Source of the DNA: a phage
Sequence record: PZ445443.1
Reading direction: 5' to 3' (one strand)
DNA: 64,000 nucleotides
The position numbers and the translations under genes are program-made. Below, in pieces: positions 60,743 to 64,000 of this stretch (position 1 is its first letter; every line of letters starts with the position of its first letter). The notes below the pieces were generated by a model, which saw only the letters and a program-made list of their open reading frames with translations, did not search any database and was not told the DNA's origin.

Positions 60743-60817
60743 GCCCTGTTAGCTTAGTGGATAAAGCAGCGGCCTTCTAAGCCGTTGACACTGGTTCGAG
60801 TCCAGTACGGGGTGCCA
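60743..60817 (+). tRNA. tRNA-Arg (anticodon TCT), CCA encoded
   Basis: Hand-folded cloverleaf: 7-bp acceptor stem (two G-U), anticodon loop CTTCTAA, T-loop TTCGAGT. Confidence 0.7.
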
Positions 60818-60821
60818 AATT

Positions 60822-60908
60822 GGGGAGTTATCCCGTAGAGGTAGCGGTGTAGACTGTAAATCTATTGTCATTGCGACTCGGGTGGTTCGACTCCACCACT
60901 CCCCACCA
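60822..60908 (+). tRNA. tRNA-Tyr (anticodon GTA), long variable arm, CCA encoded
   Basis: Perfect 7-bp acceptor stem GGGGAGT/ACTCCCC; anticodon loop CTGTAAA; T-loop TTCGACT; 87 nt. Confidence 0.7.
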
Positions 60909-61022
60909 AATTTATATTTTTAGATGCATAAATAATACAGATAATGGCATTGATATTTATCGTCGTTTATACTAGTCACTAACTGCTCGAAAATCAGTGT
61001 CATTATCAGTATAATTTATAAA

Positions 61023-61113
61023 GGAGGGTAGGGAGCAATGGTGCTCAAGCGGTCTTGAAAACCGTCCCGTTGAGGATGACTCGATGATGGTTCGATTCCA
61101 TTACTCTCCGCCA
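61023..61113 (+). tRNA. tRNA-Ser (anticodon TGA), long variable arm, CCA encoded
   Basis: Acceptor GGAGGGT/ACTCTCC; anticodon loop CTTGAAA; T-loop TTCGATT; 91 nt. Confidence 0.65.
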
Positions 61114-61211
61114 CATTGTTGACCTTGTAATTAAGCGAAAGTCGGAAGCAGAACCGGATTATCAAATGTTACAGTCGTCATCGCCGACTAGCAACATGGT
61201 CAACATACTGA

Positions 61212-61308
61212 GCTAGGTAAGCCCTTTGGCAAGGGCGAGGATTTTTAATCCTGAAAATAGACGAGGTAGTCGTTGAATACATAGGTGGTTCGATTCCATC
61301 ACCTAGCA
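61212..61308 (+). tRNA. atypical tRNA-like gene (possible UUU anticodon, oversized variable region, no encoded CCA)
   Basis: Perfect acceptor stem GCTAGGT/ACCTAGC and T-arm GGTGG-TTCGATT-CCATC; anticodon arm non-canonical (AGGA-TTTTTAA-TCCT); 29 nt between anticodon and T stems; 97 nt. Confidence 0.4.
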
Positions 61309-61315
61309 CCTTTTT

Positions 61316-61391
61316 GCTGATGTAGCACAATCGGTAGTGCAATTGATTTGTAATCAATAGGTTGTAGGTTCAAGTCCTGCCATCAGCACCA
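61316..61391 (+). tRNA. tRNA-Thr (anticodon TGT), CCA encoded
   Basis: Perfect acceptor stem GCTGATG/CATCAGC; anticodon stem ATTGA/TCAAT with loop TTTGTAA; T-loop TTCAAGT. Confidence 0.75.
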
Positions 61392-61392
61392 A

Positions 61393-61467
61393 GGCCCTGT
61401 AGCTGGAAGGTTCAAGCAAGCGACTCATAATCGCCAGACGGTGGTTCAATTCCACCCAGGGCCACCA
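61393..61467 (+). tRNA. tRNA-Met or tRNA-Ile2 (anticodon CAT), CCA encoded
   Basis: Perfect acceptor stem GGCCCTG/CAGGGCC; anticodon loop CTCATAA; T-loop TTCAATT. Confidence 0.7.
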
Positions 61468-61478
61468 AATAGTAAATA

Positions 61479-61555
61479 CTCCGCGTAGCTCAGCTTGGTA
61501 GAGCGCCTGATTTGGGATCAGGAGGTCGAGTGTTCGAATCACTCCGTGGAGACCA
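61479..61555 (+). tRNA. tRNA-Pro (anticodon TGG), CCA encoded
   Basis: Acceptor CTCCGCG/CGTGGAG; anticodon stem CCTGA/TCAGG with loop TTTGGGA; T-loop TTCGAAT. Confidence 0.7.
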
Positions 61556-61976: not shown

Positions 61977-62375
61977 ATGATTTCAGTTTTAACATGGCTG
62001 AGCAGGTATAAAGGGATCATAAAAGGTTTAGTTTTTGCAGCTGCGATAGGTACAGCTTATCTTGGGGCCGTGTATTGGTTTAACTCTAAGCTTAATGATG
62101 CCTACCAAGAAGGTGTGTCAGCAACAGAGTTAAAGTGGGAACGGATCCTTGATCAGCAACAAAAGCAGGCCGACAAAATTAAAATGGGCCACGCAGAGGA
62201 GGTTAAAAACCTTGAAAAATCCCTTTCTGATCTGCAGGATAAATTAAATATAGCTGAGAAGGCAGGTAAAGAAAAGCAGATTATCTACCTCCAGTCACCT
62301 GAAGGCAAGAAGTCAACACTTCCTGATCAGCTTATAGATATTTATAATGAGAGTATCAATCAGGAGGATCAATGA
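61977..62375 (+). CDS. i-spanin-like protein (Rz-type)
   Basis: N-terminal TM helix then charged coiled-coil region; overlaps downstream lipoprotein gene. Confidence 0.5.
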   Translation: MISVLTWLSRYKGIIKGLVFAAAIGTAYLGAVYWFNSKLNDAYQEGVSATELKWERILDQQQKQADKIKMGHAEEVKNLEKSLSDLQDKLNIAEKAGKEKQIIYLQSPEGKKSTLPDQLIDIYNESINQEDQ

Positions 62376-62659
62376 GAGTTGCTACACTGTTTATTGTGTG
62401 CTTGTTATTATGTGGGTGTGCAACCAGCGTTGAGAGAGAATACAAGATTGACCCTCCTGATGTAGGAAGGTTGATTGTTAAACCCCCGGAAGGTGCCATG
62501 AAACCACCTGCTAAAGCTATGCCTTTGAAGAAAGGTGCGCCAGATGCAGTGAATTCTGGCATTATGAGGGATAATAATCTGTCTTGTAGCAATGATAGAG
62601 CTAAATTGATCATTTTGCAAGACTATATTAGAACACTTTTTCCAAAGGAGAGAGGTTAA
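62372..62659 (+). CDS. o-spanin-like outer-membrane lipoprotein (Rz1-type)
   Basis: Signal peptide with lipobox LCGC; proline-rich; ATGA overlap with upstream gene. Confidence 0.5.
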   Translation: MRVATLFIVCLLLCGCATSVEREYKIDPPDVGRLIVKPPEGAMKPPAKAMPLKKGAPDAVNSGIMRDNNLSCSNDRAKLIILQDYIRTLFPKERG

Positions 62660-63087
62660 TGTCTAAGATTTACGGACCGTGTTCTGAAAAGCAGAAGATG
62701 ATCCTAGAAAACGATGCAGATATTTTGGTAATCGGCGGTGCCGCAGGGTCTGGCAAGTCGTTCCTCTTGCAATTGATGCCACTTAAAATTATTGATGACC
62801 CCCACAGCTCTGTGGTTATGTTCCGAAGAACAACCCCACAGTTGGAAGGTGAGGGTGGATTATGGCCTAAAGCAGTAGCTATTTATAGTGATCTGCCTGA
62901 AAACATTAAGCCAAAGTTTAGAGAGAAGGATCATAAGTTCATTTTTCCACGGTTTGATCCGAACACTGGCAAGTGGGATAGAAGCAAAAAGGGAGCTGTT
63001 GTAAAATACTGCCACATGGAGTATGTACAAGATAAGCTTAACCATCAGGGGCTTGAGTACACCATGGTTTGCTTCGATGAGGGTTAA
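62659..63087 (+). CDS. terminase large subunit, N-terminal ATPase segment (interrupted after Walker B)
   Basis: Walker A VIGGAAGSGKS preceded by QK-ILE-DA; ends at Walker B-like MVCFDEG followed by stop. Confidence 0.5.
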   Translation: MSKIYGPCSEKQKMILENDADILVIGGAAGSGKSFLLQLMPLKIIDDPHSSVVMFRRTTPQLEGEGGLWPKAVAIYSDLPENIKPKFREKDHKFIFPRFDPNTGKWDRSKKGAVVKYCHMEYVQDKLNHQGLEYTMVCFDEG

Positions 63088-64000
63088 TTTGTAGCTCTCG
63101 TAAAACCTCCCTAATTGCGGGGAAATCTTTATTATTGACACCACCAACCTGTCATGGTAACATGACAGAGGCTTCGAAGAGAGATCGAAGGTATGGTAAC
63201 AGTGTGTTAATTTAGATAATCCGCAGCGAAGCATCCGAGAGGATGAACGTTCAACGACTAGTCGAAAGACGTAGAATCAAGCGATTCGAAACGGGAGGGT
63301 GAATGTGTAATACTAAAAAATGTATGGATTGCCAAAGAGTTCTACCTATTGATGATTTCTTTTTATCATCTAAGAGCAAGGATGGATACTCAGGTACATG
63401 CAAGGAATGCTATATGTACTACAGGAAGGGTGGATCTCGTAAAAACAAAAATATGGTTAAGAGAGATGATGCAGCATTGTTTATTCAAGACTTGCTGAAG
63501 AAAGGTGAACTTTTTGAATGCAAATCTTGTCATGAAAGTATGCTCGCTGATAGTTTTTACACAAAACGTGACTATGGTAAAGTATATCTGGTTACGAACA
63601 GGTGTAAGATGTGTGAAAAGTTTTATCAGATTGAGAAGAAATTTCACATAACAAAAGATGAATACTATCGTCTACTCTCAGATCAAGATCATAAGTGTGC
63701 CATTTGTAGAATATCCCTTGATGAGTATAGGACGCAAGGGTATAGAGATTTCTTTTGTGTTGATCATGACCATAAAACTGGTGCTGTAAGAGGGTTGCTT
63801 TGTGATAAATGCAACAGAGCTTTAGGTTTCTTCCAAGAGGATGAGGAAACTATTCTTAGAGCGGCAGAGTATTTACACATTCATAAGATATAGTCTGGTC
63901 TGCATGGAGACATGCAGCTGCCTGAAAATGGCGGGGCAAGACTAGCGACCTTGCCCGAACATAAACGACACAATTCGAATGGGAGCAGATAGACTATCTG
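63088..64000 (+). mobile_element. intron-like insertion (probable group I intron with homing endonuclease ORF), 3' end beyond window
   Basis: Interrupts terminase ORF at a conserved site; structured flanks (TAGTCT...AGACTA, GGGCAAG...CTTGCCC pairings); free-standing nuclease ORF with own RBS. Confidence 0.4.
63303..63893 (+). CDS. endonuclease VII-family homing endonuclease
   Basis: ATG with GGGAGGGTG RBS; motif CVDHDHKTGAVRGLLCDKCN; N-terminal Cys clusters. Confidence 0.6.
   Translation: MCNTKKCMDCQRVLPIDDFFLSSKSKDGYSGTCKECYMYYRKGGSRKNKNMVKRDDAALFIQDLLKKGELFECKSCHESMLADSFYTKRDYGKVYLVTNRCKMCEKFYQIEKKFHITKDEYYRLLSDQDHKCAICRISLDEYRTQGYRDFFCVDHDHKTGAVRGLLCDKCNRALGFFQEDEETILRAAEYLHIHKI

Follow-up and report, generated by a model that had tools for sequence, protein, structure and literature searches.

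A probable mobile group I intron with an Endo VII-type endonuclease gene in the large-terminase gene of an rV5-like phage

Introduction

Subgroup IA introns are common in phages. Introns in the terminase gene were described for phage rV5 ('Introns in terminase'; Kropinski et al. 2013, PMC3606486) and also for LL12 (PMC6658697), and in Pectobacterium phage CB7 (Certrevirus, Vequintavirinae) splicing of an intron in the large-terminase gene, terL, has been proven by RT-PCR and Sanger sequencing (PMC7344957). Enzymes with an Endo VII motif have been divided into an endonuclease clade, in which the motif is C-terminal, and a resolvase clade, in which it is not, and the JES2013 orthologue of the enzyme considered below is one of four intron-encoded myovirus members of the endonuclease clade (PMC6083498).

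We analysed a 64,000-nt stretch of phage DNA (record PZ445443.1; hereafter the window), which ends within an interrupted terL. The terL intron of this phage group is already known and was annotated years ago. Since its first report dates from 2013, and that of the endonuclease family from 2018, the present case adds no novelty and opens no new question. It does set the stages of a textbook homing cycle (empty site, intron only, intron plus endonuclease gene) side by side in one phage genus, with a putative Endo VII-type homing endonuclease located within a packaging gene that is essential for these phages.

Results

From 62659 to 64000, the end of the window differed from Escherichia phage MaxBurger, an rV5-like Vequintavirus also known as Bas54 of the BASEL collection (MZ501093), by 2 substitutions in 1,342 nt (99.9% identity). 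We conclude that the element found there is almost certainly a mobile group I intron, probably of subgroup IA type, inserted in the Vequintavirus large-terminase gene just past the Walker B codons (FDEG|TQF). Its main parts, with the evidence for each, are as follows.

62659..63084, plus strand: terL exon 1 (ORF list; Pfam Terminase_6N; PHROG; identity to the FV3 TerL N-terminus)
63085..63967, plus strand: group I intron, 883 nt (RF00028; U(-1)/omega-G rules; collinearity with intron-less FV3)
63303..63893, plus strand: putative homing endonuclease gene, 196 aa (Pfam, PHROG and PDB matches; exact GenBank sequence named 'putative homing endonuclease')
63968..64000, plus strand: first 33 nt of terL exon 2, ACACAATTCGAATGGGAGCAGATAGACTATCTG, read as TQFEWEQIDYL (collinearity with intron-less alleles)

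The ORF at 62659-63087 encodes 142 aa, includes SEKQKMILENDADILVIGGAAGSGKS and ends in MVCFDEG before TAA; exon 1 comprises its 142 codons and closes with T63084, which supplies the U to the U.G pair of P1. Walker A lies at G26-S34 (nt 62734-62760) and Walker B at D140-E141 (nt 63076-63081). The ORF matched Terminase_6N in Pfam (E = 1.1e-05) and 'terminase large subunit' in PHROG (E = 4.6e-76) and had 100% amino-acid identity with the N-terminus of the uninterrupted TerL of FV3, which bears out the initial annotation's reading of a terminase N-terminal ORF that stops after FDEG. Its estimate that this ORF falls about 300 residues short was too low, the actual shortfall being 373 residues against a 515-aa protein. 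The 3' exon had been expected to lie beyond the window; its first 33 nt (63968-64000) are inside, while the remaining 1,089 nt, including the stop codon, are indeed outside. The in-frame continuation to be sought downstream starts at 63968 and, read from MaxBurger after the 11 codons in the window, completes a TerL of 515 aa.

Both the U at -1 (63084) and G63967, followed by ACACAA, were read straight from the sequence, and the predicted ligated junction is ...GATGAGGGT^ACACAATTC.... Joining the exons at U63084/G63967 restored the frame and yielded a 515-aa protein identical to GenBank ABI79304.1 (rV5 TerL). Comparison with intron-less relatives, as had been proposed, showed collinearity with this predicted product, since FV3 and I29 carry the same 291 residues in one unbroken stretch (100% amino-acid identity, FDEG|TQFEW). 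PF03237 (Terminase_6N) extended unbroken over the junction (residues 25-294, E = 6e-20), and Terminase_6C (PF17289) also matched (residues 394-489, E = 5e-06). From these family matches, the spliced product is predicted to be a terminase large subunit of Terminase_6 type, with an N-terminal Walker A/B ATPase and a C-terminal RNase H-like nuclease.

The first three bases of the intron form an in-frame stop, UAA, and its last base is the omega-G, G63967. The group I model RF00028, one of the checks proposed at the outset, gave a full-length match at 63075-63917 (48.5 bits, E = 5e-11), and the same intron minus the endonuclease gene, in phage naswa (319 nt), scored 84 bits over model positions 1-253. 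The gathering score of RF00028 is 50 bits, and the window intron falls below it because of a 583-nt insertion in P8; an Rfam scan of the whole window at gathering thresholds returned tRNAs only, and the intron surfaced only at an E-value threshold. Automated pipelines therefore overlook this intron, as the endonuclease insert drops its score slightly below threshold. A group II intron was also considered and gave no match, and an intein is contradicted by the stop codon and the RNA core.

Folding of the region agreed with this assignment. The roughly 215 bp after the exon 1 ORF, which the initial annotation had described as structured and non-coding, correspond to 215 non-coding nt at 63088-63302 with a minimum free energy (MFE) of -67.2 kcal/mol (z = -4.1, with 0 of 200 shuffles as good). 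The mini-intron made by cutting out the endonuclease gene had a folding z of -6.2, consistent with the structured sequence that had been noticed 3' of the nuclease ORF, with complementary pairs resembling group I core stems. In a MAFFT alignment of four whole homologous introns, P4-P6 was misaligned, since the homologues from the Aeromonas and Pseudomonas phages possess a P2 but no P5 extension, and covariation was therefore counted for P3, P7.2, P9 and P9.2 only. Across these helices in the four sequences, 95% of cells were paired and 9 of 25 pairs were compensatory, compared with 32-43% paired and 1-2 compensatory pairs in slid controls. The structural parts of the intron are listed below.

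63094..63099, plus strand: internal guide sequence GCUCUC (Rfam alignment of P1; read from sequence)
63106..63111, plus strand: P3 5' strand CCUCCC (pairs with 63293-63298 in the MFE fold)
63116..63250, plus strand: P4-P5-P6 domain with a branched P5 extension (Rfam alignment; MFE and centroid folds)
63256..63260, plus strand: P7 5' strand GACUA (partner strand UAGUC at 63891-63895; consensus columns in Rfam, ACGACUA and AGAUAUAGUC)
63261..63287, plus strand: P7.1 at 63261-63270 (GAAA loop) and P7.2 at 63274-63287 (MFE fold)
63293..63298, plus strand: P3 3' strand GGGAGG, doubling as the endonuclease Shine-Dalgarno (MFE fold; read from sequence)
63301..63310, plus strand: P8 5' strand GAAUGUGUAA (pairs with 63873-63882; includes the endonuclease start codon, 63303-63305)
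63873..63895, plus strand: P8 3' strand at 63873-63882 and P7 3' strand UAGUC at 63891-63895 (Rfam alignment; read from sequence)
63900..63956, plus strand: P9 at 63900-63917 (GAGA loop), P9.1 at 63918-63934 and P9.2 at 63934-63956 (MFE fold)

In P1, the guide sequence GCUCUC (63094-63099) pairs with exon GAGGGU (63079-63084), with a wobble at U63084.G63094, and by inspection a short P10 of 3-4 bp pairs with exon 2. Compensatory changes affected 2 of the 6 pairs of P3 (in the Aeromonas and Pseudomonas phage homologues), 4 of the 7 of P9.2 and 1 pair of P9, and in P7.2 two pairs were changed on both sides; the P5b stem shows a double change from C-G to U-A between the window and naswa. The P4-P6 domain contains hairpins at 63149-63168 (GUAA loop) and 63172-63190, and P6a at 63232-63245 (GAGA loop). 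P8 has 10 perfect pairs by inspection, which the mini-intron fold recovers, and in naswa, the Aeromonas phage and KIL2 its position is occupied by unrelated sequences that likewise form hairpins. P7.1/P7.2 between P7 and the P3 3' strand are a mark of subgroup IA, and IA-like hairpins of both kinds (P7.1/P7.2 and P9.1/P9.2) were present in the MFE folds (63261-63270, 63274-63287, 63918-63934 and 63934-63956). By inspection, and because a homologue matches the T4 nrdD intron in blastn, the intron would belong to subgroup IA and appears IA2-like.

The 196-aa ORF matched Pfam Endonuclease_7 (PF02945, E = 2e-21), with the motif at residues 110-192, and PHROG endonuclease VII (E = 3.4e-33). PDB matches were to Hpy99I and T4 Endo VII, and the DHHRN catalytic residues and zinc-binding cysteines all aligned, C131/C134, D153, H154, H156, R163, C167/C170 and N171 corresponding to C23/C26, D40, H41, H43, R54, C58/C61 and N62 of T4 Endo VII. 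The catalytic string D153-H154-D155-H156 lies in this C-terminal Endo VII (DHHRN, His-Me finger) domain, which is preceded by two N-terminal CxxC...CxxC modules (C7/C10-C33/C36 and C73/C76-C101/C104). These family motifs point to a putative Endo VII-motif (DHHRN) homing endonuclease, and the C-terminal position of the motif fits the endonuclease clade, not the resolvase clade. The gene has its own ribosome-binding site, as initially noted (GGGAGGG, 63293-63299, with a short Shine-Dalgarno to AUG spacing of ~4 nt), but it is not free-standing, being embedded in the intron as a 583-nt cassette in the P8 loop, with its UAG stop codon (63891-63893) inside P7. A promoter/terminator scan returned 9 promoter-like sites where 5.3 +/- 2.2 were expected, not a significant excess. 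The best candidate for an internal promoter (TTGACA-17-TAACAT, 63135-63163) was rejected, as it sits in a structural helix kept in alleles that lack the endonuclease gene.

Among ~119 near-identical records, 52 carry the intron, 29 of them together with the endonuclease gene and ~23 without it, and ~66 are intron-less. The JES2013 allele is 98.7% identical to the window here. Insertion was precise to the base, and the sequence ...GAGGGC ACGCAGTTCGAATGGGAG... runs unbroken in FV3, in the other intron-less alleles that were examined and in both contigs from IMG/VR. This presence/absence polymorphism at one precise site in near-identical genomes suggests that the intron is mobile. In many related GenBank records exon 1, the endonuclease and exon 2 are listed as three unrelated genes, or the endonuclease is named as a recombination enzyme.

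The exon bases flanking the site also differed between allele types. Compared with intron-bearing alleles, the examined intron-less Vequintavirus alleles showed synonymous differences at -1, where they have C in place of U, and at +3, where they have G in place of A; at +6, intron-bearing alleles always had A, and six of seven intron-less alleles had G, the exception being B9-1 (A). None of the seven intron-less alleles examined had the donor flanks GGT|ACACAA. Related introns, apparently of IA type, occupy three points within 30 nt of terL. Aeromonas phage 4L372XY has one after HQG that lacks an endonuclease, CB7 has one between D and E that carries an HNH endonuclease, and the intron here follows DEG and carries one of Endo VII type. 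It is conceivable, though we consider it doubtful, that the Walker-B coding stretch of terL is a contested homing hot spot in which intron-less alleles are endonuclease-resistant variants under selection, making ~55% of the population immune. The flank pattern may instead be a mere by-product of co-conversion and the need for U at -1. If the resistance reading were true, FV3-type GAGGGCACGCAGTTC would stay uncut and the GAGGGTACACAATTC site would be cut, while cutting of both would indicate ordinary homing with co-conversion.

Discussion

Three other explanations of the locus have to be weighed. The gene could be split and unspliced, with TerL made as two polypeptides (residues 1-142 and the C-terminal part) that assemble after translation. 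The split of the Aeromonas phage Aeh1 ribonucleotide reductase by mobE is a reported precedent, cited in the CB7 paper, and CB7 itself has one non-splicing element (PMC7344957); moreover, an ATG occurs 24 nt into exon 2, and many GenBank records list two separate terminase CDSs (e.g. naswa_30 and naswa_31). These annotations look like automated calls, however, and a product started at that ATG would lose the residues right after Walker B. The complete group I core with covariation, and a U(-1)/omega-G junction that is exact, in frame and gives the intron-less protein residue for residue, also speak against a split gene, which we regard as very improbable.

Still less probable is that the intron is decaying or splicing-defective and this terL copy a pseudogene or assembly artefact. 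The Rfam score below the gathering threshold would fit such decay, as would V18, in which a frameshifting 9-nt duplication and a 1-nt deletion adjoin the intron site. Yet the same arrangement recurs at 98-99.9% identity in 29 independently isolated, plaque-forming phages that need TerL, and the viability of the sequenced isolate is implied by isolation itself; all core helices are intact, as is the endonuclease ORF with every catalytic residue kept. Weak Pfam matches between the 142-aa ORF and further P-loop families, and the name 'recombination endonuclease VII' given to the nuclease in many records, could suggest an unrelated small P-loop ATPase beside an ordinary Holliday-junction resolvase gene. 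An unrelated ATPase, which the initial annotation had named as the finding that would overturn its reading, is ruled out by the identity with the FV3 TerL N-terminus and the PHROG terminase match, and a resolvase is contradicted by the C-terminal, endonuclease-clade style motif (PMC6083498) and by the lack of the nuclease ORF in three quarters of close relatives; of the three explanations we give this one the least credence.

The sequence comparisons show how the locus is built, which families its products match, that it is exactly collinear with alleles lacking the intron, and that the intron is present in some near-identical genomes and absent from others. How the mobile intron would work is our inference, which covers its splicing in vivo, the activity and target of its endonuclease, its homing, and a competition between translation and folding. 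The pre-mRNA would fold into a P1-P9.2 core, in which exogenous G would attack 3' of U63084, paired in P1 with G63094. Exon 1 would next attack 3' of omega-G63967, joining GAGGGU to ACACAA in an mRNA for uninterrupted 515-aa TerL, while on unspliced RNA ribosomes would halt at the UAA formed by the first three intron bases. Because the endonuclease Shine-Dalgarno lies in the P3 3' strand, its AUG in P8 and its stop in P7, translation and core formation would be mutually exclusive on any one RNA molecule. During mixed infection the endonuclease is expected to cut intron-less terL close to the insertion site, and recombinational repair from the intron-bearing genome would copy the intron, along with adjoining exon bases, into the cut genome (homing).

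Among known systems, the T4 nrdD (sunY) intron and other T-even IA2 introns likewise meet an in-frame stop shortly after the 5' splice site and may carry an endonuclease ORF in one of their peripheral loops; their P7.1/P7.2 and P9.1/P9.2 would correspond to the hairpins predicted here. The Aeromonas phage homologue of the window intron has blastn matches to the nrdD intron; T4 nrdD nevertheless differs in host gene, endonuclease family (I-TevII, not Endo VII-type) and ORF location. The C-terminal motif CX2C...DHDH...R...CX2C-N is common to F-CphI and the endonuclease here (PMC6083498). F-CphI, which has been characterised biochemically, is encoded by a free-standing gene next to the psbA intron ('collaborative homing'), whereas the putative endonuclease of the window is intron-internal and has two extra N-terminal Cys4 modules.

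Within phage terminase genes, it was in a siphovirus of a Gram-positive host that a large-subunit gene was first reported to contain a group I intron (PMC3606486); we set this case beside the window by description. The CB7 group I intron lies in the orthologous terL, but 6 nt upstream, between the Walker B D and E codons, and its HNH endonuclease ORF is in a different loop. The first terL intron of rV5 (NC_011041, rv5_gp065, a three-exon join) shares gene, insertion site, intron sequence and spliced protein with the window, although at 319 nt it lacks the endonuclease gene; further downstream, terL of rV5 contains a second intron, with an HNH endonuclease, whereas the window lineage has only one, judging from MaxBurger. 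MaxBurger/Bas54 itself, whose record joins two pieces into terL and names the ORF a 'putative homing endonuclease', shows no material difference from the locus described here.

Gene arrangement at the end of the window

The element interrupting terL, the terminase large-subunit gene, is real, and its interpretation as a group I intron in the initial annotation was essentially right. The ORFs and intervening sequence are arranged as follows.

62659-63087: terL exon 1 ORF, 142 aa, start MSKIYGPCSEKQKMILENDADILVIGGAAGSGKS, end MVCFDEG, then TAA
After this ORF and before 63303: ORF-free stretch, 215 nt
63303-63893: endonuclease ORF, 196 aa, GGGAGGG just before it
From there to the window end: tail of ~100 nt

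This layout of terminase ORF, 215-nt gap and nuclease ORF had been noted from the sequence, and database matches agree with it: the 142-aa ORF matched Terminase_6N (Pfam, E 1.1e-05) and 'terminase large subunit' (PHROGs, E 4.6e-76), and the 196-aa ORF matched Endonuclease_7 (Pfam, E 2e-21) and 'endonuclease VII' (PHROGs, E 3.4e-33). Across 62659-64000, Escherichia phage MaxBurger (Bas54, MZ501093; position + 61976 = window position) was 99.9% identical with 2 differences, and 28 further rV5-like Vequintavirus phages were 98-99.7% identical. The MaxBurger record gives terL as a two-piece joined CDS (683..3113) and labels the inner ORF 'putative homing endonuclease'.

Immediately 5' of terL lie i-spanin (61977-62375) and o-spanin (62372-62659, lipobox LLLCGC) genes, the o-spanin stop codon overlapping the terL start codon in TAATG. 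Upstream lies a tRNA cluster of seven genes (60743-61555; Arg, Tyr, Ser, ?, Thr, Met, Pro), among them a 99-nt tRNA at 61212-61310 of identity '?' and with a four-base anticodon, 'atcc' (ARAGORN), which scored only 35.5 bits (Rfam) and is tRNA-OTHER in the annotation of the Vequintavirus naswa.

Structure and covariation of the intron

The Rfam group I intron model (RF00028) matched 63075-63917 over all 253 model positions (48.5 bits, E 5e-11), a comparison that the initial annotation had suggested. Because this score is 1.5 bits below the curated threshold, scanning the complete window at the gathering score misses the intron; the score is lowered by 583 nt inserted in the P8 loop, and the same intron without this insertion in naswa (319 nt) scored 84 bits. 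The proposed structured flanks and core stems were likewise borne out, with fold z-scores of -4.1 for the non-coding 5' part and -6.2 for the intron with the ORF excised (0 shuffles equal in each case) and with core helices identified.

Helices of the window intron, assigned by inspection, Rfam alignment and MFE folds
P1: exon GAGGGU 63079-63084 x guide GCUCUC 63094-63099; U63084 pairs with G63094
P2: absent
P3: 63106-63111 x 63293-63298
P4-P6: 63116-63250; branched P5 extension, two GNRA loops
P7: 63256-63260 x 63891-63895
P7.1: 63261-63270
P7.2: 63274-63287
P8: 63301-63310 x 63873-63882
P9: 63900-63917
P9.1: 63918-63934
P9.2: 63934-63956
omega-G (last intron base): 63967

P7.1/P7.2 and P9.1/P9.2 are hallmarks of subgroup IA, to which the introns of T-even phages belong, and by inspection only the window intron would be placed there too. 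Covariation was assessed by aligning the window intron (ORF removed) with those of naswa, Aeromonas phage 4L372XY and Pseudomonas phage KIL2 (n = 4), the latter two being ORF-less terL introns located via TerL tblastn (RF00028, 85-95 bits). Counting P3, P7.2, P9 and P9.2, and leaving out P4-P6, where the alignment is unreliable, standard pairs occupied 95% of cells and 9 of 25 pairs showed two-sided changes, compared with 32-43% paired and 1-2 such pairs when the partner strand was slid 1-3 columns. The P8 sequence was wholly different in all four lineages and formed a hairpin in each, and within the genus the window and naswa differed in P5b by a double change, C-G to U-A.

A sigma-70-like site (63135-63163; TTGACA, 17 nt, TG-TAACAT; 10/12 matches) lies 140 nt before the endonuclease ORF, inside the P5 extension, and is also kept in alleles without the endonuclease gene; the promoter scan as a whole gave no excess over chance.

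Predicted splice junction and spliced product

An exon-final U, an intron-final G and the reading frame leave a single junction solution, in which exon 1 ends at T63084 (GAT GAG GGT), the intron spans 63085-63967 (883 nt; first bases UAA, last AACG) and exon 2 begins at 63968 (ACA CAA TTC GAA TGG). The 3' exon had been placed outside the window; instead, the last 33 nt of the window encode TQFEWEQIDYL of exon 2. Extension into MaxBurger supplied the expected in-frame continuation, giving a 515-aa protein in which Terminase_6N spans the junction (residues 25-294, E 6e-20) and a Terminase_6C match appears as well. GenBank ABI79304.1 ('terminase large subunit [Escherichia phage V5]') is exactly this sequence, and therefore the curated join of the rV5 authors yields the same protein.

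Comparison with intron-less relatives independently gave the same result: terL of FV3 and I29 is unbroken and collinear with the predicted spliced TerL, matching it at 100% identity over the first 291 residues and reading MVCFDEGTQFEWEQ. The GenBank alleles of intron-less FV3, bov10K2, nimi, B9-1 and V18 and two IMG/VR contigs aligned base for base across the site, indels in V18 excepted. V18 (NC_041937; locus L012, ~240-290) has a 9-nt tandem duplication, GGTTTGCTT, and has lost 1 nt, both just before the insertion site; these changes frameshift terL, and its record shows two CDSs. They could be sequencing error or a repair scar.

Endonuclease and probable intron mobility

The Endo VII motif occupies residues 110-192 of the 196-aa protein, where the zinc and catalytic positions of T4 endonuclease VII align with C131/C134, D153, H154, H156, R163, C167/C170 and N171. 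Hpy99I, a restriction enzyme, aligns through its pair of Cys4 zinc repeats with residues 57-192, and two extra CxxC...CxxC modules are N-terminal (C7/C10-C33/C36, C73/C76-C101/C104). GenBank lists a protein identical to that of the window under 'putative homing endonuclease [Escherichia phage DrSchubert]'; elsewhere it goes by 'recombination endonuclease VII'.

The endonuclease cassette (63301-63883) stands as a clean replacement for a 19-nt P8 hairpin, between flanks GGGAGGGU and UAAGAUAUAGUC common to the short-form intron. Among ~119 database records with near-identical terL, some of them RefSeq/GenBank duplicates, ~66 were intron-less, ~23 had the intron only (including rV5 itself, LL12, slur16 and naswa) and 29 had intron and endonuclease gene, the 5' part of the intron being present in 52. 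About 18 'Campylobacter phage' records (host C. jejuni; MG065635-MG065682) were ~98% identical to E. coli Vequintavirus here; probably the hosts are mislabelled or the lysates were contaminated.

On the basis of what is established for group I introns and homing, we infer that terL pre-mRNA would self-splice to give full-length TerL, that ribosomes on unspliced RNA would end at the intron-initial UAA, and that in mixed infection the endonuclease would cleave intron-less terL, with repair copying the intron in. The 3' strand of P3, GGGAGG, is also the endonuclease Shine-Dalgarno, as read from sequence. Because, in addition, the endonuclease AUG lies in the P8 5' strand, its last codons form the P8 3' strand and its UAG lies in P7, endonuclease translation and folding of the catalytic core should exclude each other on one RNA, a conflict described for T4 introns.

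Exon bases flanking the site differed with intron state (alignment A1 of intron-less alleles; window 63084, 63970 and 63973). Intron-less alleles read GGC/ACG CAR in 7/7 examined, with C at -1 and G at +3 in all seven and G at +6 in 6/7, and intron-bearing alleles read GGT/ACA CAA, all with T, A and A at these positions. U(-1) is needed for the P1 wobble pair, and the +3 and +6 A's can lengthen a short P10 with UUGU 63089-63092. This association could reflect co-conversion of adjacent exon bases during homing, splicing constraints, or resistance of intron-less alleles to the predicted endonuclease.

Comparison with known terminase introns

The DHHRN homing endonuclease family, in which the window protein falls, was defined from the biochemically studied F-CphI, with the 'Escherichia phage 2 JES-2013' protein one of four intron-encoded myovirus members (Fang et al. 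2018, PMC6083498); at this locus, JES2013 and the window share 98.7% identity. For a terL intron of CB7, a related Certrevirus, RT-PCR and sequencing demonstrated splicing (PMC7344957). By our reading this Pectobacterium phage intron (locus L013, ~385-1340) lies 6 nt upstream of the window site, between D and E codons, and carries an HNH ORF in a different loop. The 4L372XY intron (L005, 1838-2137) lies 29 nt upstream, after HQG, and thus three insertion sites cluster at the Walker B codons. The 4L372XY record shows two separate terminase CDSs and no joined CDS. In KIL2 (L004, 3080-3302), RF00028 matches a second time (68.9 bits), overlapping the 3' end annotated for the joined terL CDS (3119), and this terL may contain a further unannotated intron.

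Both a description and an annotation of this terL intron already exist for Vequintavirus genomes. The rV5 paper has a section 'Introns in terminase' and thanks David Shub for intron placement (Kropinski et al. 2013, PMC3606486), and the LL12 genome announcement reports introns in terL and the DNA polymerase gene (PMC6658697). The rV5 record (NC_011041; L008, 2725-5570) gives terL as a three-exon join, in which intron 1 is the window intron in its 319-nt short form, lacking the endonuclease gene, and intron 2, further downstream, has an HNH endonuclease (ORF 3907-4602). MaxBurger, the closest relative of the window, has the first intron only.
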